Positions 9,651-57,945 of a stretch of DNA of 64,000 nucleotides are shown here, in pieces; position 1 is the stretch's first letter; each line of letters starts with the position of its first letter. The notes beneath the pieces are model-generated. The model was not told the origin of the DNA, did not search any database, and saw nothing but the letters and a program-made list of their open reading frames with translations. This stretch comes from Escherichia coli (GTDB lineage Bacteria > Pseudomonadota > Gammaproteobacteria > Enterobacterales > Enterobacteriaceae): assembly GCF_001677475.2 (NCBI RefSeq), contig NZ_CP015229.1; one strand, written 5' to 3'. A program made the translations under genes and the position numbers.

Positions 9651-9678
9651 TCCCTGCCATTTGGCGGGGATTTTTTTA
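9651..9678 (+). terminator. Rho-independent terminator of cspA
   Basis: Stem TCCCTGCC / GGCGGGGA followed by T-run TTTTTTTATT at 9671..9680. Confidence 0.8.
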
Positions 9679-35208: not shown

Positions 35209-36183
35209 ATGACAAAATTACAACTTAAGTACCGGGAGTTAAAAATTATCTCGGTAATCGCTGCCAGTGAAAATATCAGCCATGCCGCGACTGTACTTGG
35301 CATCGCACAGGCCAACGTCAGCAAATATCTTGCTGATTTTGAATCAAAAGTAGGTTTAAAAGTCTTTGACCGAACCACCCGGCAACTGATGCTCACACCT
35401 TTTGGTACCGCGCTGTTGCCATACATCAATGACATGCTGGACAGAAACGAGCAGCTTAATAATTTTATTGCAGATTATAAGCATGAGAAACGTGGTCGGG
35501 TCACTATCTATGCACCAACCGGCATAATTACCTATTTATCCAAACATGTAATCGATAAAATTAAAGATATCGGTGATATCACCTTATCGCTAAAAACCTG
35601 CAATCTTGAGCGTAATGCCTTTTATGAAGGCGTCGAATTTCCCGATGATTGTGATGTTTTAATCAGCTACGCTCCACCAAAAGATGAATCGCTGGTTGCC
35701 AGTTTTATTACGCAATATGTCGTAACCGCTTATGCCAGCCAGCGCTATCTTGAGAAACATCACATTAGCCGTCCTGACGAACTCGAACATCACTCCTGTA
35801 TTTTGATCGACTCAATGATGATCGACGACGCGAATATCTGGCGCTTCAACGTCTCCGGGAGTAAAGAGGTGCGGGATTATCGTGTGAAGGGAAATTACGT
35901 TTGCGACAACACGCAATCGGCGCTGGAGCTGGCACGAAATCACCTGGGGATTGTGTTTGCGCCAGACAAAAGTGTGCAGAGCGATCTGCAAGACGGCACG
36001 CTGGTGCCCTGCTTTCAGCACCCGTATGAATGGTGGCTGGATCTGGTGGCTATCTTCCGTAAACGGGAATACCAGCCCTGGCGGGTCCAGTATGTGCTGG
36101 ATGAAATGCTGCGTGAAATTCGCCACCAGCTTGCTCAGTCGCAGCAACTGCGGCCTGAACAAGCGGCGGAAAGCGAAGATTAA
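35209..36183 (+). CDS. yiaU: LysR-family transcriptional regulator YiaU
   Basis: 324 aa; N-terminal LysR HTH (...[37 protein letters not shown]). Confidence 0.85.
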
Positions 36184-37316
36184 TGATCGAGATAAAGGTA
36201 ATGCACCCAGCTGGTCATGCGTAATAACACTTTGCGCATCACCGAGACATGGCTGAAATGATCGGAGTAGACCGCCACCTGGGCGTAAATACCGTCTGGT
36301 AAAGCGCTCAAATCAGTATGCTCATCCAGTTCAATGGTCGCGATAACGCCATCTGAACCCGGCGCTGTGTTTAACGTCTGTAAGGTACCGGTCGACTGAT
36401 AAGCTCCACCGGGAACAGCTGGACTAATGGCTGCCAGCTTACCGCTGAATACCTTACCTGGCAGAGCATTAAACACCACTTCCGCATCGTCACCAGGAGC
36501 CAGTCGCAGCAAGGAGTTCTGACGGAACTGCGCCACGATTTGTCGTTTCTGATCGGGTATAAACACCATCACCGGACGTAGCGGCAGCGACGCGGCATAG
36601 GTACCCGGACGAATCAGGACCTGGGCCACGTAACCATCGCTCGGCGCACGCACTATCGTCTGCTCAAGGTTATATTTTGCTTCCGCGAGCTGCGCTTTCA
36701 GGCTGGCGATTAGAGAATGTTCACCCAACACCAGGCTATCCAGCTGGCTCTGGACCTGTTTTTGTTCCGCCGCCGATGACTTTACGGAGGCTTCCTGCGC
36801 CAGATAATTTTGCCGCGCCACATCAATATCGCGTTCTGAAAACGGGTTTACTTTCGCCTGGCTGCCGCGTGCGTAACGCTGATACTCTTTAGCGAATTTA
36901 TCCCGCGTGGCCTTTGCCTGCTGAGTATTCGCCGCCATCTCATCTAACTCTGCGCCCAACGCCCGCTGTTTATGTTCTGCGGTAACGATATCCGCCATCA
37001 GCCGATCCACCCGCGCCTGATAACGCGTCGGGTCCAGTCGAAAAAGCACCTCGCCTTTTTTAATCAGCGTATTTTTCTTATCCGTCACTTCAATCACCAC
37101 GCCTGTCACCTGTGGGACAACAGGGATGGAAATAACCGCTTTTTGCGCTTTAAAGGTATACGGATGGTTATAGTTCATTAACAGAATTAAACCGCTGACA
37201 ATAAATATTCCCCCCAGGGCCGCTGTGGGAATGGTCCATTTATTTACAGGAATTTTGAAGATCTTAAACATTGCCCATGCGAAAGCCACATAGGTCAAGA
37301 TAATCAGTAAATCCAT
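36180..37316 (-). CDS. yiaV: HlyD-family membrane-fusion-type protein YiaV (no adjacent transporter)
   Basis: 378 aa; N-terminal transmembrane helix, long coiled-coil middle, C-terminal beta domain. Roughly three-quarters identical (by eye) to the ORF at 45242..46378 (yibH). 3' end overlaps yiaU by 4 nt, convergently. Confidence 0.85.
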
Positions 37317-37321
37317 AAGTA

Positions 37322-37645
37322 TTACTCGGCAGAAGAGGATTTGATGTCGGCGAGCTGTTTCTCCAGCCCGGCAATACGCTGTTGTAGTTGCACAACGGAG
37401 GAGTCATGGTTTTGCATTCCCCATCCCCGCTCCGGGCGGTAAAGCGTGGCCCAAATCCACAAAAATGGCCAGATAACATGCAGCGTAAAAAGACTCACCC
37501 AACCAGCGACATGAATGGCGTCGGCATGAGGATGATTACGTTTTTTAGCAATCAGGTAGGGAATATCATGTAAAATAATAATCCCATAGAATATCACCAG
37601 AAATACAAAAATAAGCACTCCCAGTGCAAAATAATCCAGGAACAT
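37322..37645 (-). CDS. yiaW: Small inner-membrane protein YiaW (DUF3302-type, two transmembrane helices plus C-terminal coiled coil)
   Basis: Start at ATG 37645 ([45 protein letters not shown]...), 107 aa, Shine-Dalgarno GAGGGA; stop lies 5 nt from the yiaV start; paralog of yibI. Confidence 0.8.
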
Positions 37646-38075
37646 ATTTCCCTCAGAGAATATAAAAAAGAACAATTAACGCATATTATGAAATGCCATG
37701 ATGCAGTGCAATTTCCTTATTTATATAACGACATATTGTTTTTTATATACTTTCTGAAGTGTGCTGCCTGGCTTTTCAGCAGGTCGAGGCTTATCATATT
37801 GAAATAATGGAACTATTGACAAAACTAATGAATAACTCCAGTAAAACATCCACAGTACAGATAAAGCGTATTAAACCTTCAATTATCTACCGTTTATTGC
37901 TGATTGGCCTCGGAACACCAATGGTGATTTACGGCCTGGTTCGCCCGCTCACCATCGAAACGCGAGATTAAACTCCTGGCAAAACACGCCCCAGAAACGC
38001 ACTTCTGTTGGCGTAGTCTGGGTTATTGCGCACGTAGGTTTAAAACGTAAATTGTAACAAAGTGCGCTTTGTTTA

Positions 38076-38158
38076 TGCCGGATGCGGCGTGTACGCCTTA
38101 TCCGGCCTACGGTCAGGTCCCCGTAGGCATGATAAGACGCGTAAGCGTCGCATCAGGC
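38076..38158. repeat. BIME: pair of inverted REP elements
   Basis: GCCGGATGCGGCGTGTACGCCTTATCCGGCCTAC and GTAGGCATGATAAGACGCGTAAGCGTCGCATCAGGC. Confidence 0.85.
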
Positions 38159-38189
38159 AATGAATACCCAATGCGACCAGCTTCTTATA

Positions 38190-39728
38190 TCAGAACAGCC
38201 CCAACGGTTTATCCGAGTAGCTCACCAGCAGACACTTGGTTTGCTGATAATGCTCCAGCATCATCTTATGGGTTTCGCGTCCGATGCCCGACTGTTTGTA
38301 GCCGCCAAACGCCGCATGTGCCGGGTAAGCGTGATAACAGTTGGTCCACACGCGCCCGGCCTGAATGCCGCGCCCCATCTTATAGGCCAGATTACCGTTG
38401 CGGCTCCAGACGCCCGCGCCCAGGCCATATTGCGTGTCATTCGCCAGCTCCAGCGCCTCTTCCATCGTTTTGAAGGTGGTCACCGCCAGCACCGGGCCAA
38501 ATATCTCTTCCTGGAACACACGCATATTGTTCTGACCAAACAGAATCGTCGGTTCGAGGTAGTAGCCGTCTTTCAGTTCGCCTTCCAGCAGCTTGCGCCG
38601 CCCGCCGGTAAGCACATCTGCGCCCTCTTTTTTGCCGATATCAATGTAATTGAGGATGGTTTCCAGTTGCCCGTGAGATACCTGCGCGCCCATTTGCGTC
38701 ACGCTGTCGAGCGGGTTACCGCTACGAATGCTTTCAACACGACGGATGGCGCGTTCCATAAAGCGTTCGTAGATAGACTCCTGCACTAAAGCACGGCTTG
38801 GACAGGTGCAAACTTCGCCCTGGTTGAAGGCGAACAATGCAAAGCCCTCCAGCGCCTTATCGAAGAAAGCATCTTCTTCATCCATCACATCGGCAAAGAA
38901 GATATTTGGCGACTTACCGCCCAACTCCAGCGTCACCGGAATAATATTTTGCGTGGCGTACTGCATAATCTGCTGACCGACTTCCGTTGAGCCGGTAAAC
39001 GCCACTTTGGCGATACGTTTTGAGGTCGCCAGATATTCACCTATTTCGCCGCCCGCACCGTTGACCACGTTCACCACGCCTGGCGGCAGTAAATCACCGA
39101 CGATCTCCATCAAAAGCAACACTGAAAGCGGGGTAAGTCGTGCGGGTTTTAGCACCACGCAGTTGCCCGCCGCCAGCGCGGGAGCCATTTTCCAGCTCGC
39201 CATCAGCAACGGGAAGTTCCACGGGATAATCTGCCCCACCACGCCTAACGGTTCGTGGAAGTGATAAGCCACAGTTTCGCTATCGACTTCACTGATCCCA
39301 CCTTCCTGCGCCCGAATACACGAGGCGAAATAGCGGAAATGGTCAATCGCCAGCGGCACATCGGCAGCACTGGTTTCGCGGATGGGCTTGCCGTTATCCC
39401 AGGTTTCTGCCGTCGCTAACAGTTCGAGGTTCTGCTCCATCCGATCGGCAATCTTAAACAGAATCGCCGCGCGATCCTGCACCGAGGTATGCGCCCATTT
39501 GTCTTTCACTTTATGCGCGGCATCCAGCGCCAGATCGATGTCGCGTTTGCCCGAAGACGCCACTTCGCACAGTAGCTGCCCGGTCACCGGCGTCAGGTTC
39601 TGGTAATACTCGCCGTCGGCGGGTGCTACCCATTCGCCGCCGATAAAGTTGTCATAGCGAGCTTTTAACTTGAGGGGGAAACCATACTCGCCGGGCTTAA
39701 TCTGTGCTGAAGGGGGATTGTTGGTCAT
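38190..39728 (-). CDS. aldB: Aldehyde dehydrogenase B (NADP-dependent)
   Basis: Start at internal ATG 39728 ([28 protein letters not shown]...), 512 aa; ALDH motifs including catalytic Cys in GEVCTCPSR and Glu in LELGGKSP. Confidence 0.93.
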
Positions 39729-39892
39729 GATCGTCTCCTTGCGGTGTGAGGTATAACAAGGGTAGACGTGACTGGCGAAATCTTCGCCAGCCGGTGACAG
39801 CTTTACGACGGCAATCACGAATTTACGGGCAAGGATTACAGAGATAATTGAAAAATCGGCTGACAATTTGCCAGCCGTTGTGGGAATGATGA

Positions 39893-41044
39893 TTACATCG
39901 CAGCGCGATAAATCGCCACAATTTCTTCGTGAGTTGCCTGAATCGGGTTAGTAAATCCGCAGGCATCTTTCAGAGCATTGGTCGCCAGTACCGCGAAATC
40001 TTCTTCTTTCACGTTCAGATCGCGCAGACCTGCCGGAATATCGACTTTCTTCGCCAGTTCACGGATAGCGTTAATGCAGGCTTCTGCACCTTCCGCGTCG
40101 TTTTTACCTGTCACGTTCACGCCCATTGCAGCAGCGCAGTCACGCAGACGTGCGGCAGCTACTTTGCTGTTGAATACCTGAACGTGCGGCAGCAGAACGG
40201 CGTTACATACACCGTGCGGCAGGTTGTAGAAACCGCCTAACTGGTGCGCCATCGCATGAACATAACCCAAAGACGCATTGTTGAACGCCATACCGGCGAG
40301 GAACTGGGCATAAGCCATCGCTTCACGCGCTTTCGCATTGCTGCCATCTTCTACGGCTAACGGCAGGTTTTCGGCAATCATGGTCACGGCTTTCAGTGCG
40401 CAAGCGTCAGTGATCGGCGTTGCGGCAATAGACACATACGCTTCGATAGCGTGTGTTAAGGCATCCATACCCGTTGCAGCGGTCAGTGACTTCGGCATAC
40501 CGATCATCAGAGAGGAGTCATTGACAGAAAGCAGCGGAGTCACGTGTTTATCCACAATCGCCATTTTGATGTGGCGCGCTTCGTCAGTGATAATGCAGAA
40601 ACGGGTCATTTCAGACGCAGTACCCGCCGTGGTGTTGATGGCGATCATCGGCAACTGCGGTTTTGCAGAGCGGTCAACGCCTTCGTAATCGCGAATATCA
40701 CCGCCGTTGGCTGCCACCAGCGCAATGCCTTTCGCACAATCGTGCGGAGAACCACCACCTAAGGAAATCACGCTATCGCAATTATTTTCTTTCAGCAGTT
40801 TGAGGCCTGCGGCGACGTTTTCCGTAGTTGGGTTAGGCTGGGTGCCATCATAAATAACGCTAAAAATATTGCGTTCTTCCAGTGCTTTTTGCACATCGCC
40901 CGCCATACCTAATTTCGTTAAAATATTGTCAGTAACAATTAATGTACGGGTAAAGCCATAGTCTGCCATCATATTCATTGCATCATTCAATGAATCAGCG
41001 CCGATGACATTCACTGAAGGAATAAAAAAGGTTGAAGCTGCCAT
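39893..41044 (-). CDS. yiaY: Iron-containing (group III) alcohol dehydrogenase YiaY
   Basis: 383 aa; Fe-ADH family pattern ([11 protein letters not shown]; conserved His residues in ...HAIEAYV... and ...HAMAHQLGG...). Confidence 0.88.
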
Positions 41045-41232
41045 AAAACACTCCTGGAAGAGTAAAAAGGGCTGGCAGATTACAAAGTATTTTCATTCGG
41101 AAATATGATCAACATTACCGTTTATCAAAATATTTTTAATAAAAAGCACGTTACATTCATCAAATAACGTGCTTCTTTAATATTAATAAGAATTTTGTAT
41201 TAATTCATATTTATTATGAATTAATCATTTCC

Positions 41233-43077
41233 TTATTTTTCGGGAAATAATAATGCATCGCGCAATAAATGATCATTTCCACGACGCCGCGTAAAGCCAA
41301 TGCGGTCAAAATATTCCAGAATCTGAATTGCCAGCTTTCGGCCTACACCTAAGCGATCGCGGAAATCCGCCGCGCAGGTTGAGCCACATTCCTGATCGAG
41401 ATCGCGGATCATATTGGCAAATTCAACAATCCGATCATTACGGTAATAACGATCTTTGACGATCGCCGTAATTATCCCCTGCTGTGCCGCCTGGCGTAGC
41501 GTCAAGCGCATTGCCTGCTCGTCGGTTCCCGTCTCTTTTGCCAGGTCACGCACCCACCACGGCTCGTCACCAAACAGCGGCTCTGCTTTTTGCCAGATGG
41601 CCTGCTGCTCTTCGCTGAAGCCCGCTTTGTGATCCGGCAGATGCAGCCAGCCGTGATGACTGAGGATGTCGCCGCTTTCGCGCATCTTTTCAATCAGCAA
41701 CAGTACCAGCGCTTCATCTTCCATTGGCAACGCCATACGTCGCAGACGTTCGCGCCCAGGACCAGGTTCATCGCGATGTTGCTCATGATAAGTCGCTAAT
41801 GTGTCGAGAATTTTCCGCTGCCAGCGGGCGGCAACCGGCGCATTCAACAAGCTATAACCAGCCTGAATATAGCCAGGCTGTTGCAATAGTTCGCGCATCC
41901 CTTCGCCGTTGAGCTGCCGTGCCCAGGCGAAATCGGCAAGGTTAACCGCGCCGCGTTCCAGATGAACAGATAACGCATCGGCATCGCTCTGCGCCCGTGC
42001 CAGTGACGCCAGCCATTGCAGATATTCCGGCTTACGTTTACCGCGACGCGGCGGGTTAAGCATCACCACACGCGCCCCCGCCAGCGTGTTGCGGGCCGAG
42101 ATATCGCGCAGCACTAAGCGATCGTTATCCGCCAGCCACAGCGGCGTGTCGAACACCAGCTCGGCAAGGTTATCTTCCAGCAGCGAAACGCGCCCCGTAA
42201 CATGGCTGGCGGCGTGGTGAATATGCAGCGGCTGCCACTGGGTCAGCGGTGTATGAGTTTGAAGCTCGACAATCACCCGTGTGAACGGCTCTGGCGGCAC
42301 ATCGGCAAGCAGCCAGTCGCCACGGTTAATCTGCTCTTTTTCCGCATCACCCGCGATGTTAAGTGCGATACGCTGCCCGGCATGGGCGGTTTCTGTTGGC
42401 TGGTTTTGCGCATGCAGCGCACGTACACGCATCGATTTATTTACACCAGTCAGCCATAGTGAATCGCCTACCTTCACTTCCCCGCTTAACGCCGTACCGG
42501 TGACGACCAGCCCGGCACCTTTTACAGTAAATGCGCGGTCGATCGCGAGGCGGAAACTATGTTGGCTGGCGTGTTCACGTTCTGGTAACTGAAGCAGATG
42601 CTCGCGCAGGGCATCAATTCCCCGACCTTCGGTTGCTGCGGTGATAAACAGTTTTGCCTCAGCAAAACCGTATTCCCGCAGCACCTCCTTTACCTGGCGT
42701 TCAACCTCATCAACACGCGCTTCGTCCACGCGATCGGCTTTGGTCAGCGCCACTGTCAGCATCGGGTTACCAGTCAGCTGCAAAATCGCCAGATGCTCAC
42801 GGGTCTGTGCCATCACGCCGTCATCGCACGCCACCACCAACAGCGCGTGATCGATACCACCAACGCCCGCCAGCATGTTGGAAAGAAACTTTTCATGACC
42901 GGGAACGTCGATAAAACCAGGCACGCGGCCATCCGGCTGCGGCCAGTAGGCATAACCGAGATCGATGGTCATGCCGCGCTTTTTTTCTTCCGGCAGACGG
43001 TCGGCATTTACGCCAGTAATCGCCTGCAATAAGGTTGTTTTGCCGTGGTCAACGTGTCCGGCAGTCGCAATAATCAT
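41233..43077 (-). CDS. selB: Selenocysteine-specific translation elongation factor
   Basis: 614 aa; GTPase G1 motif GHVDHGKT at the N-terminus; C-terminal extension; 4-nt overlap with selA. Confidence 0.95.
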
Positions 43078-44465
43078 TTCAACAACATCTCCAAAAACCG
43101 TTGCTCATCTTCAAGGCAGCGTAAATCCAGCCACAATCGTCCGTCATAAATACGACCAATCACCGGCACTGGCAATTCACGCCAGCGGGCGGCTAATGAC
43201 TCAAGGTGGCTACCGCGTCCATCATGGGGTGTAAACGTTAATGCCGCGCTCGGCAGGCGATCAACCGGCAGCGAACCACTGCCAATCTGCGAAAGACATG
43301 GCATAACCTGGACTGCAAACTCCGCGCCGTAATGTGCGGCAAGGGGAGCCTGTAAACGTTGTGCCTGGATTTGAATGACCTCTGCGCTGCGGGTAAGCAG
43401 GCGCAGGGTCGGTAATTTTTCACTCAGCGCCTCAGGGTGTAAATAAAGACGCAGCGTGGCTTCCAGCGCCGCGAGGGTCATTTTATCCGCGCGTAATGCA
43501 CGCTTCAGTGGATGGCTTTGCAGGCGGGCGATCATCTCTTTTTTACCAACGATAATCCCTGCCTGCGGCCCGCCTAACAACTTGTCGCCGGAGAAGCTCA
43601 CCAGGCTGACGCCCGCCGCAATCAACTCCTGCGGCATCGGCTCTTTCGGCAAACCGTACTGGCTAAGATCGACCAGCGAACCACTGCCTAAATCAGTCAC
43701 TACGGGAACATCCAGTTCTTTGCCAAGCGCCACCAGTTCAGCTTCATCTATCGCTTTGGTGAACCCCTGAATGCTGTAGTTACTGGTATGTACTTTCATC
43801 AACAGTGCGGTATTTTCATTCACCGCCTGACGATAATCATTCGCGTGCGTGCGGTTGGTGGTCCCCACTTCGTGCAGGGTACAGCCAGCCTGACGCATGA
43901 CGTCAGGGATACGAAACGCGCCGCCGATCTCCACCAGTTCGCCACGAGACACCACCACCTCTTTACCGCTGGCAGTGGCCGCCAACATCAATAACACCGC
44001 CGCCGCATTGTTATTAACGATACAGGCATCTTCCGCCCCCGTAATACGGCACAGCAGCTGCGCCAGCGCACGATCGCGATGTCCGCGTCCGGCGTCGTCC
44101 AGATCGTACTCCAGCGTCACCGGCGAACGCATAGCCTGCGCAACGGCTTCCACCGCGGCTTCTGCCTGTAAAGCTCGCCCAAGATTGGTATGCAGCACGG
44201 TTCCCGTCAGGTTGATCACCGGACGCAGCGCGCTCTGCGCTTCTTTCGTCAACCGGGCATCGACTTCTTGCGCCCAGTTCTCACACCACGCGGGCAGCGT
44301 CTGGCTGTCACGAATCACTTCTCGCGCTTCGTCAAGCATCTGACGCAGCAATTCCACCACGCGGGTGTGACCATAAGTATCACGCAAAGAAAGGAAGGAG
44401 CTATCGCGCAATAAGCGATCAATAGCCGGAAGTTGACTATAGAGGGAACGCGTTTCGGTTGTCAT
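43074..44465 (-). CDS. selA: L-seryl-tRNA(Sec) selenium transferase
   Basis: 463-aa ORF recognised as SelA ([21 protein letters not shown]...); candidate PLP-lysine region [13 protein letters not shown]. Confidence 0.95.
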
Positions 44466-44562
44466 AGGAAACCTGGCTAATCAAGGCTCTCTCACACGGA
44501 GAAGGGCGTTTAACATAACCACGGATTGTAACGTGAGATGGGTCAGGAGGACATATCGCGCA

Positions 44563-45171
44563 TCAAGCCTTTGGCGGTTCGGTGCGAGCAAAACTTTCGC
44601 GGCTAAACAGGTTTTCGACCAGTTTGACTAAGTGTGGGCGGTCGACACACCAGCCTGGCGCAACGCGGCGGAAATTGAGATATCCGACGGCACAGGCAAT
44701 GGCGATAGTCGCCAGATTGACCGTATCGGTTTTGAGTGTGCCATCGACCAGATATCCTTCCAGCACATCCAGACTGCGGTTGATTTTCTCCCGCTGGCGT
44801 AACAATTCATCTTCAGACTGCTGCGCCGCCGGACGCGCCTGTTCGCGCACCGACACCAGCCCGGCATCCATAATACCGTCGGCCAGCGCCTCAATTTTAC
44901 GCACTCGCAACGACTCCAGCGGATCGCGCGGCAACATCGCCGGAGCGACATTCATTAATTCAATATATTCGGCAATGATCGGCGAATCAAACCAACATTC
45001 GCCCTCTTCGGTCACCAGCACCGGCACTTTCCCTAACGGGTTAAATTGCGCCACGCCGTTGTCCGCGTTATAGGGCAGCTCATTAATAAATTCGAAAGTT
45101 ATGCCCTTTTCTAACAACAGAATAGAAAGTTTGCGTACAAACGGGCTGGTGTAGCTACCGACGAGTTTCAT
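44563..45171 (-). CDS. yibF: Glutathione S-transferase-family protein YibF
   Basis: 202 aa; N-terminal thioredoxin-like GST domain ([28 protein letters not shown]). Confidence 0.88.
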
Positions 45172-45241
45172 GCCGAGTCCTTTGTGCGAGGAAAAATATC
45201 AGTATGGCTCAGGCTCGCGCAAAACACAGGTGACATAAGTC

Positions 45242-46378
45242 TCAATGATCCAAATAAAGATAATGCATCCAACTGGTCATTCTCAGCAGCACCTTCCGCA
45301 TCACCGAAACATGGCTGAAATGGTCGGAGTAAACTGCTACCTGGGCGTAAATGCCGTCGGGTAAGGCATCGATATCATCGTTGGGGTCCAGTTCAATGGT
45401 TCCCAGCACACCGTCCGTGCCGGGCACGACCGTTAATGATTGCAATACCCCCTGCGCCTGATAAGAACCGCCTGGCACGACAGGTAAAATACTGGTCAGT
45501 TTGCCGTGGAACACCTGCCCAGGTAGCGCGTTAAACACCACTTCCGCATCATCGCCGGGTTTCAGACGTAACAGCGAGTTCTGCCGAAATTGGGCGACAA
45601 TTTGCCGTTTTTGCTCGGGGATGAAAACCATCACCGGACGTAGCGGCAAGGCAGCTGCGTATGTACCTGGGCGGATCAGTACCTGAGTAACGTAGCCATT
45701 GCTTGGTGCGCGAATGACAGTCTGCTCAAGGTTATATTTTGCTTCAGTAAGTTGCGCTCTTAAGCTCACAATCTGCGACTGCTCGCCGTTAACCATACTG
45801 TCGAGCTGGCTCTGGATCTGCGCCTGCTCCGCCACCGAGCCTTTCACCAGCGCGTCCTGCGCGAGGAAGTTTTGCCGCGCATCGTCGATGTCACGTTCCG
45901 AGAACGGATTCACCGCCGCCTGGCTACCTTTCAGGTAACGTTGATAATTTTTAAACAGACGGTCGCGCTCCGCTGAAACCTGGGTGGTGTTGGCCTGCGC
46001 TTCAGTGAGCTGGGCGCGCAGCGTCTTTATATTATGCGTCGCCGTCATCAGGTCAGCCTGAAGTCTGTCAACTCGCGCCTGGTAACGAACCGGGTCGAGT
46101 TTAAAAAGCACCTCGCCCTTTTGAATAAGCTGATTATTCTTGTCAGTGACTTCAGTAACAATTCCCGTCACCTGTGGCGTGATGGGGATCGCTATCACTG
46201 CCTTTTGCGCGGTAAAAGTGTAAGGATGGTTGTAGTTCATCAATAAAATCAAACCACTCACCAGAAATACGCCTCCCAACGCCGCCGTCGCCAGCGTCCA
46301 CTGATTCACCGGAATGCGGAAGATTTTAAATACTGCCCATGCCAGCGCCACGTAAGTTAAAACAATTAACAGATCCAT
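45242..46378 (-). CDS. yibH: HlyD-family membrane-fusion-type protein YibH (paralog of YiaV)
   Basis: 378 aa; same architecture as yiaV; the N-terminal region and the last ~30 residues are near-identical to YiaV (differing at one position in the final 30, V/M). Confidence 0.85.
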
Positions 46379-46380
46379 AA

Positions 46381-46743
46381 TCAGATCTCCGGGAACGTGG
46401 AATAGTCACTCTTTTTTTCAGCTGCAAGTTGGTGCTCCAGCCGGGAAATACGGTCAGAAAGTGCGGCGATTTCCGGGTCAGTCACTTTCTCCTGCGACGC
46501 AACATGTGACTGCATGCCCCAGCCGCGCTCCGGTTGATAGAGCGTCGCCCAGATCCACAGAAACGGCCAGATAACATGCAGAGTAAACAGGCTAACCCAG
46601 CCCGCCGTATGAATAGCGTCGGCATGGGGATGGTTGCGCTTTTTGGCAATCAAATAAGGGATGTCATGTATCGCGATGATTCCATAAAAAATCACCAGAA
46701 AGACGAAGATCAGCACTCCCAACGCGAAGTAGTTTAGAAACAT
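46381..46743 (-). CDS. yibI: Small inner-membrane protein YibI (DUF3302-type, paralog of YiaW)
   Basis: 120 aa; N-terminal region near-identical to YiaW, C-terminal tail divergent; stop is 2 nt from the yibH start; GAGG Shine-Dalgarno. Confidence 0.85.
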
Positions 46744-47279
46744 ATCTGCCTCGGATTCACGCTTATCAGTGTTGTTTTTTGGCTGGCAGCCGGAAGGGAG
46801 TCAGGCTGATACTTTGACATTAATCTGCGTTTGCCAATCTCGCCATCACACCGAAGGATAATTTTAAAAGGCGATGAGTTGCTCAGTTACAAAACTGTCT
46901 TAAGGCAAAGTCAGAACATGTTGCAGATCACATCAGGTGAATTACCGAAGAAAATATCTTGTGATTCAGATCACAAAAATCTAACAAACCATCAAAACAA
47001 AAATGTGACATTACTCACATTTAAATGCCATTTTTAGCGAAAATCGCCGCCTTGTTGCTTTTTTACACAAGCGTTTTGTGATGAACGTCACGCCAATTAC
47101 CTCTCTACCCCCTATATTTATGTGACTGATATCACACAAAAGACCGTCGACTGGACAGTTAACCGATTCAGTGCCAGATTTCGCAGTATCTACAAGGTCC
47201 GGCTACCTCTGCCGCCACATTAACAAAAAACCTCGGGCTTCCAGCCTGCGCGACAGCAAACATAAGAAGGGGTGTTTTT
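46744..47279 (+). promoter_or_regulatory. mtlADR promoter/operator region
   Basis: 536-bp AT-rich non-coding region upstream of mtlA; known to carry the sigma70 promoter with CRP and MtlR operators. Individual sites were not mapped here. Confidence 0.5.
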
Positions 47280-49193
47280 ATGTCATCCGATATTAAGATC
47301 AAAGTGCAAAGCTTTGGTCGTTTCCTCAGCAACATGGTGATGCCAAATATCGGCGCGTTTATCGCGTGGGGTATCATCACCGCGTTATTTATTCCAACAG
47401 GGTGGTTACCGAACGAAACGCTGGCGAAGCTGGTCGGGCCGATGATCACTTATCTCCTGCCGCTGCTGATCGGTTATACCGGTGGTAAGCTGGTAGGCGG
47501 CGAACGTGGCGGCGTAGTCGGTGCCATTACCACCATGGGCGTTATCGTCGGCGCAGACATGCCGATGTTCCTCGGTTCTATGATTGCAGGTCCGCTGGGC
47601 GGCTGGTGCATTAAGCACTTCGACCGCTGGGTAGACGGTAAGATCAAATCCGGTTTTGAGATGCTGGTGAATAACTTCTCCGCAGGCATCATCGGGATGA
47701 TCCTCGCTATTCTGGCATTCCTCGGCATTGGCCCGATTGTTGAAGCCCTGTCCAAAATGCTGGCTGCGGGCGTTAACTTCATGGTTGTCCATGACATGCT
47801 GCCGCTGGCGTCTATCTTTGTTGAACCGGCGAAAATCCTGTTCCTCAACAACGCCATTAACCACGGTATCTTCTCGCCGCTGGGCATTCAGCAGTCCCAT
47901 GAACTGGGTAAATCCATCTTCTTCCTGATTGAAGCTAACCCAGGTCCAGGTATGGGCGTGCTGCTGGCGTACATGTTCTTTGGTCGTGGCAGTGCTAAAC
48001 AATCTGCGGGCGGTGCGGCAATCATCCACTTCCTGGGTGGTATCCACGAAATCTACTTCCCGTATGTGCTGATGAATCCGCGTCTGATTCTGGCCGTTAT
48101 TCTCGGCGGTATGACTGGCGTGTTCACGCTAACTATCCTGGGCGGTGGTCTGGTTTCTCCGGCATCTCCAGGTTCTATCCTTGCGGTACTGGCGATGACA
48201 CCAAAAGGTGCTTATTTCGCTAACATCGCGGGTGTGTGTGCGGCGATGGCTGTCTCCTTCGTTGTCTCTGCTATTTTGCTGAAAACCAGCAAAGTGAAAG
48301 AAGAAGATGATATTGAAGCAGCAACTCGTCGTATGCAGGACATGAAAGCTGAGTCTAAAGGTGCGTCTCCGCTGTCTGCGGGCGATGTGACTAACGACCT
48401 GAGCCACGTACGTAAAATCATCGTTGCCTGTGACGCCGGTATGGGTTCCAGTGCAATGGGCGCAGGCGTGCTGCGTAAGAAAATTCAGGATGCAGGTCTG
48501 TCGCAGATTTCGGTCACTAACAGCGCGATCAACAACCTGCCGCCAGATGTGGACCTGGTCATCACTCACCGTGACCTGACCGAACGCGCTATGCGCCAGG
48601 TTCCGCAGGCACAGCATATTTCGCTGACCAACTTCCTCGACAGCGGCTTGTACACCAGCCTGACCGAACGTCTGGTTGCTGCCCAGCGCCATACTGAAAA
48701 CGAAGTAAAAGTGAAAGACAGTCTGAAAGACAGCTTTGACGATTCCAGTGCTAACCTGTTCAAGCTAGGCGCGGAGAACATCTTCCTCGGTCGCAAAGCG
48801 GCCACCAAAGAAGAAGCGATTCGTTTTGCTGGCGAGCAACTGGTGAAAGGCGGTTACGTTGAGCCGGAATATGTTCAGGCGATGCTGGATCGTGAAAAAC
48901 TGACCCCGACTTATCTGGGTGAGTCTATCGCGGTGCCACACGGTACGGTTGAAGCGAAAGATCGCGTACTCAAAACGGGCGTCGTGTTCTGCCAGTACCC
49001 GGAAGGCGTACGCTTCGGTGAAGAAGAAGATGACATTGCCCGTCTGGTGATTGGTATTGCTGCCCGTAACAACGAGCACATTCAGGTTATAACCAGCCTG
49101 ACCAATGCACTGGATGATGAGACTGTCATCGAGCGTCTGGCACACACCACCAGCGTGGATGAAGTGCTGGAACTGCTGGCAGGTCGTAAGTAA
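47280..49193 (+). CDS. mtlA: PTS mannitol-specific EIICBA component
   Basis: 637-aa ORF recognised as MtlA: N-terminal polytopic EIIC, then EIIB (candidate phospho-cysteine in IVACDAGMGSS) and C-terminal EIIA. Confidence 0.97.
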   Translation: MSSDIKIKVQSFGRFLSNMVMPNIGAFIAWGIITALFIPTGWLPNETLAKLVGPMITYLLPLLIGYTGGKLVGGERGGVVGAITTMGVIVGADMPMFLGSMIAGPLGGWCIKHFDRWVDGKIKSGFEMLVNNFSAGIIGMILAILAFLGIGPIVEALSKMLAAGVNFMVVHDMLPLASIFVEPAKILFLNNAINHGIFSPLGIQQSHELGKSIFFLIEANPGPGMGVLLAYMFFGRGSAKQSAGGAAIIHFLGGIHEIYFPYVLMNPRLILAVILGGMTGVFTLTILGGGLVSPASPGSILAVLAMTPKGAYFANIAGVCAAMAVSFVVSAILLKTSKVKEEDDIEAATRRMQDMKAESKGASPLSAGDVTNDLSHVRKIIVACDAGMGSSAMGAGVLRKKIQDAGLSQISVTNSAINNLPPDVDLVITHRDLTERAMRQVPQAQHISLTNFLDSGLYTSLTERLVAAQRHTENEVKVKDSLKDSFDDSSANLFKLGAENIFLGRKAATKEEAIRFAGEQLVKGGYVEPEYVQAMLDREKLTPTYLGESIAVPHGTVEAKDRVLKTGVVFCQYPEGVRFGEEEDDIARLVIGIAARNNEHIQVITSLTNALDDETVIERLAHTTSVDEVLELLAGRK

Positions 49194-49197
49194 TCCA

Positions 49198-49385
<188 letters not shown>

Positions 49386-49421
49386 CCCTCTCGGGTAAAA
49401 ACATTGATGAAGGTTAATACT

Positions 49422-50570
49422 ATGAAAGCATTACATTTTGGCGCAGGTAATATCGGTCGTGGCTTTATCGGTAAACTGCTGGCAGACGCGGGTATCCAAC
49501 TGACGTTTGCCGATGTCAATCAGGTGGTACTTGATGCCCTGAATGCCCGTCATAGCTATCAGGTTCATGTGGTCGGTGAAACCGAGCAGGTAGATACCGT
49601 TTCCGGCGTCAATGCCGTCAGCAGCATTGGTGATGATGTCGTTGATCTGATTGCTCAGGTTGATTTAGTCACTACCGCCGTTGGTCCGGTTGTGCTGGAA
49701 CGTATTGCCCCGGCAATCGCCAAAGGGCTGGTGAAACGTAAAGAACAAGGTAATGAATCCCCGCTGAACATCATCGCTTGTGAAAACATGGTCCGCGGCA
49801 CCACACAGCTGAAAGGCCATGTGATGAACGCCCTGCCGGAAGATGCCAAAGCGTGGGTAGAAGAACACGTTGGCTTTGTTGATTCCGCCGTTGACCGCAT
49901 CGTGCCGCCTTCGGCTTCTGCAACCAACGATCCGCTGGAAGTGACGGTAGAAACATTCAGCGAATGGATTGTCGATAAAACTCAGTTCAAAGGCACGCTG
50001 CCAAACATTCCTGGTATGGAGTTAACCGACAACCTGATGGCGTTTGTCGAACGTAAACTCTTCACCCTGAACACGGGTCATGCTATAACCGCGTACCTCG
50101 GAAAACTGGCCGGTCATCAGACCATTCGTGACGCTATTCTCGACGAGAAAATCCGCGCGGTGGTTAAAGGTGCGATGGAAGAAAGTGGTGCAGTATTGAT
50201 CAAGCGCTACGGCTTTGACGCTGACAAGCATGCGGCGTACATCCAGAAAATCCTCGGCCGTTTCGAGAACCCGTATCTGAAAGATGATGTAGAGCGCGTA
50301 GGCCGTCAGCCGCTGCGTAAACTGAGTGCTGGCGACCGTCTGATCAAGCCACTGCTGGGTACGCTGGAATACGGCCTTCCGCACAAGAATCTGATTCAGG
50401 GGATTGCTGGTGCAATGCACTTCCGCAGTGAAGATGATCCGCAGGCTCAGGAGCTGGCAGCACTGATCGCTGACAAAGGCCCGCAGGCGGCGCTGGCACA
50501 GATTTCCGGTCTTGATGCCAACAGCGAGGTTGTATCCGAGGCGGTAACCGCTTATAAAGCAATGCAATAA
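49422..50570 (+). CDS. mtlD: Mannitol-1-phosphate 5-dehydrogenase
   Basis: Start at internal ATG 49422 ([20 protein letters not shown]...), 382 aa; NAD-binding GAGNIGRG; the upstream part of the ORF is the palindrome-rich spacer. Confidence 0.96.
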
Positions 50571-51157
50571 TGGTGGACCAGGCGCAGGACACCCTGCGCC
50601 CGAATAACAGATTGTCAGATATGCAGGCAACAATGGAACAAACCCAGGCCTTTGAAAACCGTGTGCTTGAGCGTCTGAATGCTGGCAAAACCGTGCGAAG
50701 CTTTCTGATCACCGCCGTCGAGCTTTTGACCGAGGCGGTAAATCTTCTGGTGCTTCAGGTATTCCGCAAAGACGATTACGCGGTGAAGTATGCTGTAGAA
50801 CCGTTACTCGACGGCGACGGTCCGCTGGGCGATCTTTCTGTGCGTTTAAAACTCATTTACGGGTTGGGTGTCATTAACCGCCAGGAATACGAAGATGCGG
50901 AGCTACTGATGGCATTGCGTGAAGAGCTAAATCACGACGGCAACGAGTACGCGTTTACCGATGATGAAATCCTTGGACCCTTTGGTGAACTGCATTGCGT
51001 GGCGGCGTTACCACCGCCGCCACAGTTTGAACTTGCAGACGCCAGTTTGTATGCAATGCAAATTCAGCGTTACCAACAGGCTGTGCGATCAACAATGGTC
51101 CTTTCACTGACAGAGCTGATTTCCAAAATCAGCTTAAAAAAAGCCTTTCAAAAGTAA
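50570..51157 (+). CDS. mtlR: Mannitol operon repressor
   Basis: 195-aa ORF recognised as MtlR; ATG shares one nucleotide with the mtlD stop (TAATG). Confidence 0.92.
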   Translation: MVDQAQDTLRPNNRLSDMQATMEQTQAFENRVLERLNAGKTVRSFLITAVELLTEAVNLLVLQVFRKDDYAVKYAVEPLLDGDGPLGDLSVRLKLIYGLGVINRQEYEDAELLMALREELNHDGNEYAFTDDEILGPFGELHCVAALPPPPQFELADASLYAMQIQRYQQAVRSTMVLSLTELISKISLKKAFQK

Positions 51158-51167
51158 GTACTTTCGC

Positions 51168-51377
51168 TTACTTCTCCTCTACCTGTTTCGGCCGATAAAG
51201 CCGACGATAATACTCCAGACGTTGTAGATATAACGGCACGCTTTCATCAGGTATTCCGGACGGAATCGCGTTACGGGGAGGTAGTTTTTTCAGATACTCC
51301 CGGAACGCCTGGCTGGATGCCATGAAATCTACGGCTTTATCGATAAGAAGCGGAACGTTTTCACCTAATTTGCCCAT
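51168..51377 (-). CDS. yibT: Small uncharacterised protein YibT
   Basis: 69-aa [44 protein letters not shown]...; position as in K-12. Confidence 0.75.
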
Positions 51378-51660
51378 GATGATATCTCCGAATTACCCCG
51401 CGCCGGGAATGCGCGGCCGCCAATTTTAGTTTAGATCCCGGTATAAATGACATTAAGGAAAACGTGCTCAATCCTCAATAATCATCCGCTTCTGTTAATT
51501 ATCTTTTTTCTATAAATTTCTTAGTTAATCAACAAATTGCGTGCTTTTTAAGCAAGTTAATGATTACGTTATAGAACTATTGCAATGTCATCAGTTGTGA
51601 ACAAAGCACCTGGTCGCGCATACTAGGGGCTATAAATTTATCTTTATCAGAAGTCATCAC

Positions 51661-52023
51661 ATGAAAGAAGTCGAAAAAAACGAAATCAAACGTCTCAGCG
51701 ATCGTCTGGACGCCATCCGTCACCAGCAGGCCGATCTGTCGCTGGTTGAAGCCGCAGACAAATATGCCGAACTGGAAAAAGAGAAAGCTACGCTGGAAGC
51801 TGAAATTGCCCGCCTGCGTGAAGTTCATAGCCAGAAACTCAGCAAAGAAGCACAAAAGCTGATGAAGATGCCGTTCCAGCGTGCGATTACCAAAAAAGAA
51901 CAAGCCGATATGGGTAAGCTGAAGAAGAGTGTCCGTGGGTTAGTCGTAGTGCATCCGATGACCGCACTGGGTCGTGAAATGGGTCTGCAAGAGATGACCG
52001 GGTTCTCAAAGACAGCGTTTTAA
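51661..52023 (+). CDS. yibL: Uncharacterised coiled-coil protein YibL
   Basis: 120-aa [45 protein letters not shown]... Confidence 0.8.
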
Positions 52024-52513
52024 CCCTCTTACCTGTATATCTCCCTCACATCCCGCGTTTCTAAATGCGGGATGCAACAAATATCCTCCTCTTTTTCCTC
52101 TGTTACCTCGTAGAGTCTACTTTTTACCAATGGCACTAAATCTGAAAATGCATTCAGTAAAAGGTTTGGTTCGACGCCTAAAAATGGAAGATATCATTCA
52201 TAAAATAAAACTTTTGCCGTTATTTTTTCCATCTACATTCTAAAAACTCACCCAAAACATTTATTGTGTGAATATTAAATGAAAGCTATTTTTCTGCTTT
52301 AAATGCAGTGTTTGACATCTGATAACCCTCCTCATTAAAATCCGCCTCCCTAACACAATTAAACAATTTTAAAACTTAATAAATAATTTTCATAACAAAT
52401 ATATTCGCAACATTCATAAAGCCAGCCGTATAAATCGCAAAAGCATCAACCACAAATGGACACATCCCTTAGACCGCGTTGGTATCAGGGATGATATGTA
52501 AGGATAACTTTAT

Positions 52514-53197
52514 ATGAAAGTGAATAAATTATTGATAAGCGTCCTGGCGGCTTCGACAATACTGATGCTGTCAGGTTGTGATTACGTCGAAAAAACGAAA
52601 GTCGTTGATGAACTCACAAAACAACAAGAAGAACAAAAGGCCAGAATTGATCAACTCGAAAAACGATTAGAACAAGAAACCAAAAAGACAAACACCATTG
52701 AAAAACAAAGCATTAGTCTGATAAACAGTACAAAGCTGCTGGCTCAGGTAGTGAAAGAGATTAAGCATCAGCAAGATACATTTGTCTTTACTGAATTTAA
52801 CCCCGATCAAACAAAATATTTCATTTTAAATAACGGTTCGGTAGGTATTGCCGGCAGGGTGTTATCTGTTGAAGCAATAGAAAATGGCAGTGTTATTCAT
52901 ATGTCATTGGCCAATTTATTAAGTGTTCCCGTATCAAATATTGGTTTTCATGCCACCTGGGGCGGTGAAAGACCGGGTGATCAAAAAGAATATGCCAAAT
53001 GGCAACAACTGCTATTTAGCACCAACATGAACTCCACGCTGAAATTATTACCAGGTCAATGGCAAGACATTAACTTGACGTTAAAAGGGGTGTCTCCCAA
53101 CAACCTGAAATACCTGAAGTTGGCTATTAATATGCAGAATATCAACTTCGACAACCTTCCACCTGCTGATAACCGGCAGAAAAAAAGCAAAAAATAA
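52514..53197 (+). CDS. Inner-membrane lipoprotein with coiled coil, SadB-like putative export helper for the downstream trimeric autotransporter
   Basis: 227 aa; signal peptide with lipobox LSGC followed by Asp at +2 (the inner-membrane retention signal); long coiled-coil (QQEEQKARIDQLEKRLEQETKK), then a beta-rich domain; Shine-Dalgarno AAGGA; AT-rich codon usage; 43 bp upstream of the adhesin gene on the same strand. Confidence 0.65.
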   Translation: MKVNKLLISVLAASTILMLSGCDYVEKTKVVDELTKQQEEQKARIDQLEKRLEQETKKTNTIEKQSISLINSTKLLAQVVKEIKHQQDTFVFTEFNPDQTKYFILNNGSVGIAGRVLSVEAIENGSVIHMSLANLLSVPVSNIGFHATWGGERPGDQKEYAKWQQLLFSTNMNSTLKLLPGQWQDINLTLKGVSPNNLKYLKLAINMQNINFDNLPPADNRQKKSKK

Positions 53198-53240
53198 ATG
53201 CAGTCATTGCACTTATATCAAGGAATAGAGAGCAACAACA

Positions 53241-56200
53241 ATGAACAAAATTTTTAAAGTTATCTGGAACCCTGCGACGGGAAGTTACAGCGTCGCCAGC
53301 GAAACGGCAAAAAGCCGTGGAAAGAAGAGCGGTCGCAGCAAGCTGTTAATTTCTGCGTTGGTTGCCGGTGGGTTGCTGTCGTCGTTCGGGGCGAGTGCTT
53401 CTGTCAGTCTTGATGGTGGTACATATTCTGATGGCACCGAACTTACTGATGCATGGATTGCTATTGGTAAAGGTGCGAAAGCTTCCTCTGTAGGCGGTAG
53501 CACAGCAAGTATTTCTATTGGGGTAAATGCAATCTCTGCTGCTGGGGCTACTGCAGTGGGTTATAACAGTAATGCTACTGGACAAAGTTCAGTATCAATG
53601 GGGCAGCTATCGAAAGCCACAGGGAGCAGGGGGGTTGCTATCGGCAGTGGAGCTAGTGCCATTGGCGACTATACAGTTGCATTAGCGGTTGGCTCCAGTG
53701 CTAGCGGTGAGAGTGCAGTGGCAATAGGTCAAGGTTCCGGAGCCAAAAATAAAGGTAGTGTTGCGTTAGGTAACAGAGCGTCATCATTAGGAGAAAAATC
53801 GGTAGCACTAGGGGTAGACAGTAAGGCCACTGGTGACGATAGCCTGGCATTAGGTAGAAACGCCTTGGGCAATAGCACAGGTTCCATTGCAATGGGTGCC
53901 GCAAGCGAAGCCAATGGATTATATAGTTTGGCATTAGGCGCAAGCAGCGTAGCTAACGCGGACAATACCGTTGCGCTCGGATATGGTGCCAATGCAGCCA
54001 AAGCTGGAGCAATGGCTTTCGGTCAGGCAGGAAAGGCAGATGGTGTAAATTCTATTGCGCTGGGTAATAAAAGTCAGTCAAGCGGCGAAAACAGTATTGT
54101 GCTTGGACAAGAAAGCTATGCTGGTAGTGAAAAAAGTATTGCGATTGGTAGCCTGTCCAACGTAACCGGTGTTAACTCCGTTGCTCTGGGCACAGAGTCT
54201 ACTGCCGTGGAAGATAATACTGTTTCAGTAGGTAACGACACGCTGCAGCGTAAAATTGTCCATATGGGAAAAGGCGATATTAGCAGTACCAGTACTGATG
54301 CCATCAATGGTTCACAGCTTTATGATATCAGTAAGTCAGTTGCAGACCGTCTGGGCGGCGGTGCCTCCGTGAGTACTGCCGGGGTTGTTAACGCCCCTAA
54401 CTACAAACTGCAAAGTGGTAACTTTAATAATGTTGGCGACGCATTAAAGGGTCTTGATGATAATACGTTGCAATGGGACTCGCTTAAAAAAGTCTACAGT
54501 GCAAAACACGGTTCCGATGCCACCAGCAAAATCACCAACGTTACGGCGGGTGAGCTGAACGCATCCAGTACCGACGCCGTTAACGGTTCTCAGTTGAAAA
54601 CCACTAACGACAATGTGGCAACCAACACCACTAATATCAGCAACCTGACCGGCGAAGTTGCTAACAACACCACCAATATCACTAACCTGACGAATGATGT
54701 TGCCGCCAACACCACCAGTATCACCAACCTGGCTGATACGGTGACTAACCTTGGTGAAGATGCGCTGAAATGGGATGACACCGCTGGCGTATTCACTGCT
54801 GCACACGGCACCGAAGCCACCAACAAAATCACCAATGTTACGGCAGGTGAGCTGACGGAGACCAGTACCGATGCGGTTAACGGTTCTCAGTTGAAAACCA
54901 CTAACGATAACGTGGCAACCAACACCACCAGTATCACCAACCTGACTGATACAGTGACTAACCTTGGTGCCGACGCGCTGGCATGGGATGACGCCTCAGG
55001 TGCATTCACCGCCAAACACGGCACCGAAGCCACCAACAAAATCACTAACGTTACGGCAGGTGAACTGACGGAGACCAGTACCGATGCCGTTAACGGTTCT
55101 CAGTTGAAAACCACTAACGATAACGTGGCAACCAACACCACCAATATCAGCAACCTGACCGGCGAAGTTGCTAACAACACCACCAACATCACTAACCTGA
55201 CGAATGATGTTGCCGCCAACACCACCAGTATCACCAACCTGGCTGATACGGTGACTAACCTTGGTGCCGACGCGCTGGCATGGGATGACGCCTCAGGTGC
55301 ATTCACCGCCAAACACGGCACCGAAGCCACCAACAAAATCACTAACGTTACGGCGGGTGAGCTGACGGAGACCAGTACTGATGCCGTTAACGGTTCTCAG
55401 TTAAAAACCACTAACGACAATGTGGCAACCAACACCACCAACATCACCAATCTGGCTGATACGGTGAACAACCTCGGTGAAGATGCGCTGAAATGGGATG
55501 ACGCCGCAAGCGCATTCACCGCTGCACACGGCACCGAAGCCACCAGCAAAATCACTAACGTCACCGCTGGAACAATCTCGTCTACCAGTACCGACGCTGT
55601 TAACGGTGGGCAACTCTTTAGCTTAAGTGATTCACTGGCAGACTATTTTGGCGGTAACGCCTCGGTTGATGAAAACGGTGTATTTACTGGCCCGTCCTAC
55701 ACCATCGGTAGCAACAGCTACGATAACGTAGGTGATGCGCTGGCGGCGATTAACACCTCCTTTAGCACTTCACTGGGCGACGCTCTGCTGTGGGATGAAA
55801 CGGCAAGTGCATTCAGCGCCGGCCACGGTGGCAATGCCAGCAAAATTACCAATGTCGCAAACGGTACTATTTCTGAAACCAGCACCGATGCCATCAATGG
55901 TGGGCAACTCTACGGTGTGAGCAACTCTGTTGTTGATGCCCTGGGCGGTGGCGCCGCAGTAAATGCTGACGGTAGCATCAGTGCGCCGACGTACTCCATT
56001 GCTGATACCGATTACAATAACGTCGGTGATGCTCTGGACGCGATCGACTCAACCCTGGATGATGCGCTGCTCTGGGACGCAACCGCCGGTGAAAATGGTG
56101 CGTTCAGCGCCAGCCGCGATGGCAAAGCCAGCGTAATCACTAATGTTGCTAATGGTGATATTTCTGAAACCAGTACTGATGCAATTAATGGTTCACAGTT

Positions 56201-57905
56201 GTTCGCCACCAACACGTTGATCAATCAGCAAAATGAGATCATCAACCAGATTGCCGGTAATACCAGCACAGACTACATCGAAGAGAACGGTGCGGGTCTG
56301 AACTATGCGCGTACTAATGACACCGGCTTAACCTTTATTGATGCGAGCGCATCAGGTACTGGCGCTACAGCGGTGGGTTATAACGCTGTCGCTTCCGGCG
56401 AAAGCAGTGTCGCAATTGGTCAGAATAGCAGCAGCAGCGTTGATACTGGTATCGCGCTGGGTAGCGAATCCGTCTCCAGCCGTGTGATTGTTAAAGGTTC
56501 TCGTAACACCAGCGTAACCGAAGAAGGCGTTGTGATTGGTTACGACACCACTGACGGCGAACTGCTTGGTGCATTGTCGATTGGCGATGATGGTAAGTAC
56601 CGTCAGATCATCAACGTTGCTGATGGTACTGAATCCCATGACGCCGTGACTGTACGCCAGTTGCAAAACGCCATTGGTGCGGTCGCCACTACGCCGACCA
56701 AGTACTACCATGCCAACTCAACGGAAGAAGATTCACTGGCGGTAGGTACTGACTCGCTGGCGATGGGCGCGAAAACTATCGTCAATGGTAATGCGGGTAT
56801 TGGTATCGGCCTGAATACTCTGGTTCTGGCAGATGCCATCAACGGTATTGCTATCGGTTCTAACGCACGCGCCAACCATGCAAACAGTATTGCAATGGGT
56901 AATGGTTCTCAGACCACTCGCGGCGCTCAGACTGGCTACACCGCCTACAACATGGACGCGCCGCAGAACTCTGTCGGTGAGTTCTCTGTCGGCAGTGAAG
57001 ACGGTCAACGTCAGATCACTAATGTCGCGGCGGGTTCGGCAGATACCGATGCCGTTAACGTTGGTCAGTTGAAAGTGACGGACGCACAGGTTTCCCAGAA
57101 CACCCAGAGCATTACTAACCTGAATACTCAGGTAACGAATCTGGATACCCGCGTCACCAATATCGAAAACGGTATTGGCGATATCGTAAGCACCGGTAGC
57201 ACCAAGTACTTCAAGACCAACACCGATGGCGTAGATGCTAACGCGCAGGGTAAAGACAGTGTTGCGATTGGCTCTGGCTCTATTGCTGCCGCTGATAACA
57301 GCGTTGCGCTGGGTACTGGCTCTGTGGCAAACGAAGAAAATACGATCTCCGTAGGTTCTTCCACTAACCAACGCCGTATCACCAACGTTGCCGCTGGTAA
57401 AAATGCTACTGACGCGGTTAACGTTGCGCAGTTGAAGTCTTCCGAAGCAGGCGGCGTGCGCTATGACACCAAAGCTGACGGTTCTGTTGATTACAGCAAC
57501 ATCACTCTCGGCGGTGGTAATGGCGGAACGACTCGCATCAGCAACGTTTCCGCTGGCGTTAACAACAACGACGCGGTGAACTACGCGCAGTTGAAGCAAA
57601 GCGTGCAGGAAACGAAGCAATACACCGATCAGCGCATGGTTGAGATGGATAACAAACTGTCCAAAACCGAAAGCAAGTTGAGCGGTGGTATCGCTTCTGC
57701 AATGGCGATGACCGGTCTGCCGCAGGCTTACACGCCAGGTGCCAGCATGGCCTCCATTGGTGGCGGTACATACAACGGTGAATCGGCTGTTGCTTTAGGT
57801 GTGTCGATGGTGAGCGCCAACGGTCGTTGGGTCTACAAATTACAAGGTAGTACCAATAGCCAGGGTGAATACTCCGCCGCACTTGGTGCCGGTATTCAGT
57901 GGTAA
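53241..57905 (+). CDS. upaG: Trimeric autotransporter adhesin (YadA-like head/stalk repeats and C-terminal membrane anchor), UpaG/EhaG/SadA-like
   Basis: 1554 aa; extended signal peptide [27 protein letters not shown]...; many head-type repeats (SVALG, NSIALG, AVAIG); neck-like motifs (TDAVNGSQL); tandem stalk repeats; C-terminal YadA-type anchor ending ...AALGAGIQW. Confidence 0.8.
54540..55600 (+). repeat. In-frame tandem coding repeats (alternating ~297-nt and ~213-nt units) within the adhesin stalk
   Basis: GTTAACGGTTCTCAGTTGAAAACCACTAACGA recurs at about 54579, 54875, 55088 and 55385; the encoded 99-aa and 71-aa units ([21 protein letters not shown]...[21 protein letters not shown]) are near-identical at nucleotide level. 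Confidence 0.9.
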
Positions 57906-57907
57906 TG

Positions 57908-57925
57908 ACCCATTAACAAATGGGT
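57908..57925 (+). terminator. Stem-loop immediately after the adhesin stop codon
   Basis: ACCCATT AACA AATGGGT, a perfect 7-bp inverted repeat 3 nt after TAA; no strong T-run, so terminator function is uncertain. Confidence 0.4.
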
Positions 57926-57945
57926 AAACGCCAAATTGCCTGATG

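Follow-up and report, generated by a model that had tools for sequence, protein, structure and literature searches.

An empty, very probably ancestral allele of the RhsA site between yibF and yibH in a divergent Escherichia coli strain

Introduction

How did a junction of only 70 bp come to lie between yibF and yibH in an Escherichia coli strain, at the place where K-12 carries the RhsA element? The question was raised by a first-pass annotation of a 64-kb stretch of DNA from one strain (referred to below as the window), in which the two genes were noted as separated by 70 bp, and in which rhsA and associated yib genes were said to lie between them in K-12. The short interval could be a site that was never occupied, a site from which an Rhs element was lost, or an error of assembly. 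Two papers of the Hill laboratory, Feulner 1990 and Wang 1998, reportedly describe that Rhs-minus strains have a short stretch of unrelated DNA at the RhsA site.

The yibF/yibH site is position 10 of 11 rhs positions and is variably occupied (Jackson et al., 2009; PMC2935791). Position 10 was inferred there to have arisen within E. coli, after the split from the pathogenic group without the clade I expansion (Jackson et al., 2009). It is the only one of these 11 positions that falls inside the window.

Results

The genes around the junction were assigned from the sequence and its list of open reading frames. On the minus strand are selB (41233..43077), selA (43074..44465; TIGR00474 match at 633 bits) and yibF (44563..45171), which codes for a glutathione S-transferase homologue of 202 aa and forms the conserved left flank of the Rhs site. 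The conserved right flank is yibH (45242..46378, minus strand), which codes for an HlyD-family membrane-fusion protein of 378 aa and is preceded by its co-oriented upstream partner yibI (46381..46743, minus strand; DUF3302, 120 aa, Pfam PF11742 at 140 bits); mtlA (47280..49193, plus strand) lies beyond yibI. The gap between yibF and yibH is exactly 45172..45241, so that the 70 bp of the first-pass annotation were correct. YibF was matched by the NCBIfam equivalog NF007682 at 408 bits (cut-off 181) and has no amino-acid difference from the K-12 protein, all 15 nucleotide differences being in third codon positions. YibH, in which HlyD/membrane-fusion domains were found by profile match, likewise has no amino-acid difference from K-12. 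The two flanking genes are intact, adjoining and co-oriented, as expected of an empty allele. The spacing is a matter of gene adjacency and not a statistical pattern, and chance is not at issue. A paralogous copy of yibI-yibH (45242..46743) is present about 8.5 kb away on the same strand as yiaW-yiaV (36182..37657; about 69.5% DNA identity).

The window was compared with K-12 MG1655 (NZ_CP184745.1, locus L001) using the RefSeq annotation. In MG1655 yibF and yibH are 8,287 bp apart, and the interval holds, besides rhsA and yibA, a pseudogene of an Rhs core, yibG, another piece of Rhs and an Imm57 immunity gene broken by a frameshift. A domain scan of K-12 RhsA showed DUF6531, the RHS repeats and core, and an Ntox34 toxin domain; YibA was identified as a HEAT-repeat protein. 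The position of rhsA given in the first-pass annotation was therefore borne out. Had it been wrong, with rhsA elsewhere and a 70-bp junction in K-12 as well, the annotation would not place rhsA, yibA, yibG and Rhs fragments between the two genes, nor would alignment with K-12 give a difference of 8,249 bp by BLAST and no 70-bp junction; this explanation is excluded.

Collinear BLAST matches joined L001 1..7751 to window 37459..45208 and L001 16001..22786 to window 45241..52023. By BLAST and alignment the breakpoints in the window were placed at 45208/45209 and 45240/45241. Identity with K-12 from the yibF side runs to ...CAGTATGGC (45208), and the match restarts at CTCAATGAT, where 45241 directly precedes the yibH stop codon, whose first coordinate is 45242. 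Between them lies a filler of 32 bp, TCAGGCTCGCGCAAAACACAGGTGACATAAGT (plus strand; 45209..45240), which is the only junction sequence that K-12 is without and which is replaced there by 8,249 bp (L001 7752..16000). In a repeat search neither a target-site duplication nor a terminal inverted repeat was found at the ends of the K-12 island, no remnant of the filler was found within the island, and no target duplication was found around the window junction. The lack of duplication or inverted repeat at the island ends points to a scar-free replacement and not to transposition or integrase-type insertion; judged from the aligned sequences, the occupied and empty alleles differ by a scar-free replacement of 32 bp by 8,249 bp.

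Rhs material was searched for throughout the 64 kb. The best tblastn match of K-12 RhsA to the window had an E value of 4.1, blastn with the whole 8.2-kb K-12 island gave zero matches, and tblastx with the same island (rhsA tip, yibA, yibG, Imm57) gave only scattered fragments of 16-34 residues. The YD motif Y.YD..G[RNK] occurred 0 times in the six-frame translation of the window and 4 times in that of the K-12 island. The highest GC content over 3 kb of the window was 57% (over selB), as against 61.9% in the K-12 rhsA core, and no GC-rich core (about 62%) followed by AT-rich tips was seen. The one open reading frame of more than 800 aa in the window (53241..57905) codes for a YadA-type adhesin and no Rhs protein; no long reading frame (about 1,400 aa) with YD/RHS repeats and an RHS core was found in the window, and neither were a C-terminal toxin with an adjacent immunity gene or orphan tip/immunity modules. 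The similarity, motif and GC searches thus agree with the first-pass annotation that the window is free of Rhs core reading frames, YD repeats and orphan fragments. Its further statement, that the strain lacks this polymorphic-toxin locus, holds for the yibF/yibH position, the 64-kb window being unable to speak for the whole genome. The RhsA toxin and its immunity genes are both missing at the yibF/yibH site of the strain.

Empty and occupied states were then counted in 5,426 complete E. coli genomes. The contiguous yibF-yibH junction was present in 1,523 of them (28%), a K-12-type left junction in 3,745 and a K-12-type right junction in 3,716; about 150 matched neither the empty nor the occupied state. 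In sampled genomes without K-12-type junctions the matches ended at query position 137 (L001 7751) or began at 302 (L001 16001), and the breakpoints were identical between these genomes and the K-12-type junctions. The site is empty in E. coli 042, VCSW7 and ETEC1738, and occupied in K-12, O157:H7, O103, O111 and O55:H7. A rare third state was seen in NZ_OZ197100.1 (12101..24100 of locus L062), where yibF adjoins a gene for an S6-family (SPATE-like) peptidase and a chaperone-usher fimbrial operon. In GCA_014469795.1 (locus L061, 1..962) the SelB protein is identical to that of the window (DNA 96.7%), and an Rhs gene, with a DUF6531 N-terminus, adjoins yibF; since this site is occupied despite the identical SelB, identical flanking proteins are no predictor of the state of the site.

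The best identities of any complete genome (n = 5,426) to the window were 97.6% at the site, 96.3% in a 15-kb comparison and 98.2% in the first 12 kb. The draft assembly GCA_019140535.1 from NCBI (contig ABBDLD010000020.1) reached 99.98% over 21.8 kb, and its junction is empty in the same way. The proteins of the window are nearly identical to those of K-12 despite a DNA identity of about 96%; the differences fall mostly in third codon positions and comprise 167 transitions and 49 transversions (ratio 3.4). An artificially recoded sequence was considered and was ruled out by the third-position bias, the transition/transversion ratio of 3.4 and the natural assembly at 99.98%. By these sequence comparisons the window is assigned to a genuine lineage of Escherichia bordering on E. 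coli, without a close relative among the 5,426 complete RefSeq genomes.

These data also bear on the quality of the assembly. Draft assemblies often break at Rhs cores, which are repeats in multiple copies, and the L061 contig does end inside the Rhs gene that adjoins yibF, so that a repeated Rhs element could in principle have been collapsed or dropped to leave a false junction. Against this, the junction holds a specific 32-bp filler that is confined to genomes with an empty site, the same junction is found in 1,523 complete genomes, and the independent assembly of the same lineage (GCA_019140535.1) has it as well. An assembly artefact is scarcely credible.

The ancestral state was examined by scanning GTDB species representatives with YibF, which returned 55 loci. 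The order yibI-yibH-(61-92 bp)-yibF-selA, with no Rhs match, was found in the divergent 'E. coli' representatives E69 and SCPM-O-B-8794, in E. whittamii and Escherichia sp. E1V33, and in Citrobacter amalonaticus, Kluyvera cryocrescens, Pluralibacter, Huaxiibacter, Lelliottia and others. In C. koseri the order yibI-yibH-yibF is the same and the spacer is longer (174 bp); in further genera, which are without yibHI, mtlA lies about 0.5 kb upstream of yibF. Six empty Escherichia spacers were aligned, each of 70 bp, and they correspond at every base; a spacer as long as that of the window is present in ETEC1738, 042, VCSW7, E69, E. whittamii and Escherichia sp. E1V33. The 34 nt upstream of a conserved motif that precedes yibF (described below) gave z scores of 11-18 between the window and other Escherichia and of 6.4 and 6.9 against C. 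amalonaticus; against the end of the K-12 island no similarity was found (z -1.0). The filler is shared with Rhs-free E. coli and with the outgroups, and its breakpoints are those of the occupied allele. Homology of the filler to the C. amalonaticus spacer makes the filler older than the genus and the empty site ancestral, and because the filler is missing from the K-12 allele, deletion of the K-12 element could not recreate it. On this sequence evidence the empty state is read as ancestral and not as a deletion, in agreement with Jackson et al. (2009).

The same observations weigh on secondary loss, by which RhsA would once have been present and a deletion would have regenerated the 70-bp junction. 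Rhs loci are known to have been lost and to have decayed in E. coli strains (Jackson et al., 2009; PMC2935791), and rare other states of the yibF/yibH site exist. Return of the 32-bp filler, absent from the K-12 allele, would however require re-import of an empty allele by recombination; outgroups free of Rhs, out to Citrobacter, have retained the filler, and no scar or Rhs fragment was left in the window. Secondary loss is on this balance highly improbable.

Two loci bear on the age of the occupied allele. Escherichia sp. MOD1-EC7003 (locus L007, 1..2962), a species representative outside E. coli, shares 184 bp of the K-12-type left junction (yibF-rhsA intergenic), followed by a lipoprotein-like reading frame and H-repeat/ISAs1-like fragments, with no Rhs core. 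In the E. albertii type strain (locus L008, 1..838) a reading frame of 230 aa, MOSC-like by eye, lies 57 bp upstream of yibF, and about 16 bp just past the breakpoint resemble K-12 and the K-12-type left junction. The junction likeness of these two loci suggests that the history of the occupied-type allele extends beyond E. coli proper. Such an allele may be of greater age than an origin within E. coli would imply, or may pass between lineages more readily. A further idea, in which the K-12 island would have as its left end a diverged copy of the ancestral region upstream of yibF, was rejected: similarity was limited to L007 (z 14) and E. albertii (z 5.4), the values for other genera being weak (z <=3.6) and drawn from many tests.

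The sequence upstream of yibF was aligned for the 55 loci. CATA[CA]T, usually as (G/T)CCATACT, starts 34-44 nt before the yibF ATG in most Enterobacteriaceae loci and is present irrespective of the upstream neighbour (yibH, mtlA or Rhs). In the window the conserved motif is GCCATACT (45201..45208, minus strand), 30-37 nt upstream of the yibF ATG, and the K-12 Rhs breakpoint lies directly 5' of it. CCTGA or TCTGA precedes the motif in many genera. The longer block (C/T)CTGA-N-CCATACT (window 45201..45213; loci L003-L056) is conserved across many Enterobacteriaceae genera with any upstream gene. The breakpoint in K-12 separates CCTGA precisely from GCCATACT, and K-12 retains the second half alone. 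Nearer to the gene, AAGGA (45178..45182, minus strand) is the likely Shine-Dalgarno sequence of yibF; the aligned loci share a conserved AAGGA/AGGA 6-11 nt upstream of the ATG. The replaced 32 bp would thus make up nearly the whole interval between the yibH stop codon and the yibF motif, both of them under functional constraint.

The GCCATACT motif is a candidate for part of the yibF core promoter. Reporter fusions of Salmonella yibF begin at -31 (PMC5137417), which indicates a start site near the gene. A sigma-E SELEX peak listed between yibF and yibA (PMC5493296) was considered and set aside, as it lies inside rhsA and is irrelevant to the yibF promoter. A consensus scan of 44400..47400 for sigma-70 promoters and terminators returned none in the spacer, RNA folding of the spacer region was no better than that of shuffled sequence (z -0.08), and a search of the whole window against Rfam returned cspA, sok and ES036 only, with none near the yibF-yibH site. 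In some other genera a hairpin with a T-tract is clear at the homologous place; Escherichia keeps the T-tract alone. As no terminator is recognisable between yibH and yibF, some read-through from yibIH into yibF is plausible in empty-site strains; it would be impossible in occupied strains.

Other features of the window were recorded. A 5.9-kb segment between yibL and lldP (52024..57962), missing from K-12, corresponds to the EhaG/UpaG locus of other E. coli, with its DUF3251/SadB-like lipoprotein. It contains the gene (53241..57905) for a YadA-type trimeric autotransporter of 1,554 aa with ESPR, head, stalk and anchor domains; matches to E. coli homologues covered only about 61% of these at about 82% identity, and the gene is therefore a divergent allele. 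The Rfam matches were the cspA thermoregulator 5' UTR (9250..9677), a sok antitoxin RNA (9960..10111) in a hok/sok-type locus adjoining cspA, and the sRNA ES036 (28951..28993) within a REP-like repeat region.

Discussion

The 70-bp interval is very probably the ancestral, never-occupied junction and so represents the empty allele at rhs position 10, in which 32 bp were later swapped for an Rhs composite in the K-12-type lineage. On the way to K-12-type strains, a dispensable 32 bp of the spacer would have given way to a composite of 8.2 kb made up of the rhsA core with its Ntox34 toxin tip, the immunity gene yibA, and downstream orphan tips with immunity genes. The exchange would have taken place without the scars of a transposon or an integrase, and the occupied allele would then have spread in E. 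coli, with homologous recombination in the conserved flanks as the probable route. In the window, yibF lies directly behind yibI-yibH and retains its own conserved upstream motif and likely ribosome-binding site.

The presence/absence polymorphism at yibF/yibH is common, ordinary and already described (PMC2935791), and the significance of the present junction beyond the description of the strain is small. For annotators, the strain is one without RhsA toxin/immunity modules at yibF/yibH, and it carries what appears to be the ancestral allele of a well-known polymorphic site. It also provides a clean example, with outgroups, in which the empty state reads as ancestral and the replacement, 32 bp against 8,249 bp, as free of scars.

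The sole mildly new angle is that the breakpoints coincide with the conserved motif upstream of yibF, so that the regulation of yibF could depend on the allele. Acquisition of the Rhs element probably changed the sequence upstream of yibF. A stronger proposal, which we put forward as doubtful, is that breakpoints placed exactly at the yibH stop codon and midway through the conserved block mean that yibF transcription differs between Rhs-plus and Rhs-minus strains, and that the occupied allele came by recombination from a diverged Escherichia donor and not by insertion in situ. If so, occupied strains would keep GCCATACT and lose the CCTGA half, and yibF would be unlinked from yibIH; the left end of the occupied allele, partly E. 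albertii-like, would fit such a donor.

Among known systems, the RhsA element of K-12, one of the Rhs elements of C. W. Hill's laboratory, occupies the same site within the same yibF and yibH bounds as the interval described here; the window has 32 bp in place of its 8,249 bp and is without the core, the toxin tip, yibA and the orphan tips. E. coli O55:H7 CB9615 is also occupied, with the same flanks and downstream orphan modules (yibG and the Imm57 pseudogene) as K-12, and with an Rhs C-terminal tip and immunity gene (DUF6258) unlike those of K-12, nothing of which is present in the window; the pair illustrates tip displacement at the occupied allele. In IHE3034 the K-12-type right junction is absent and the site is probably empty. 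Close counterparts of the window are E. coli 042, VCSW7 and ETEC1738, in which the architecture of the 70-bp spacer is identical, and the filler differs from that of the window by 0-2 bases where it was compared (ETEC1738 and E69).
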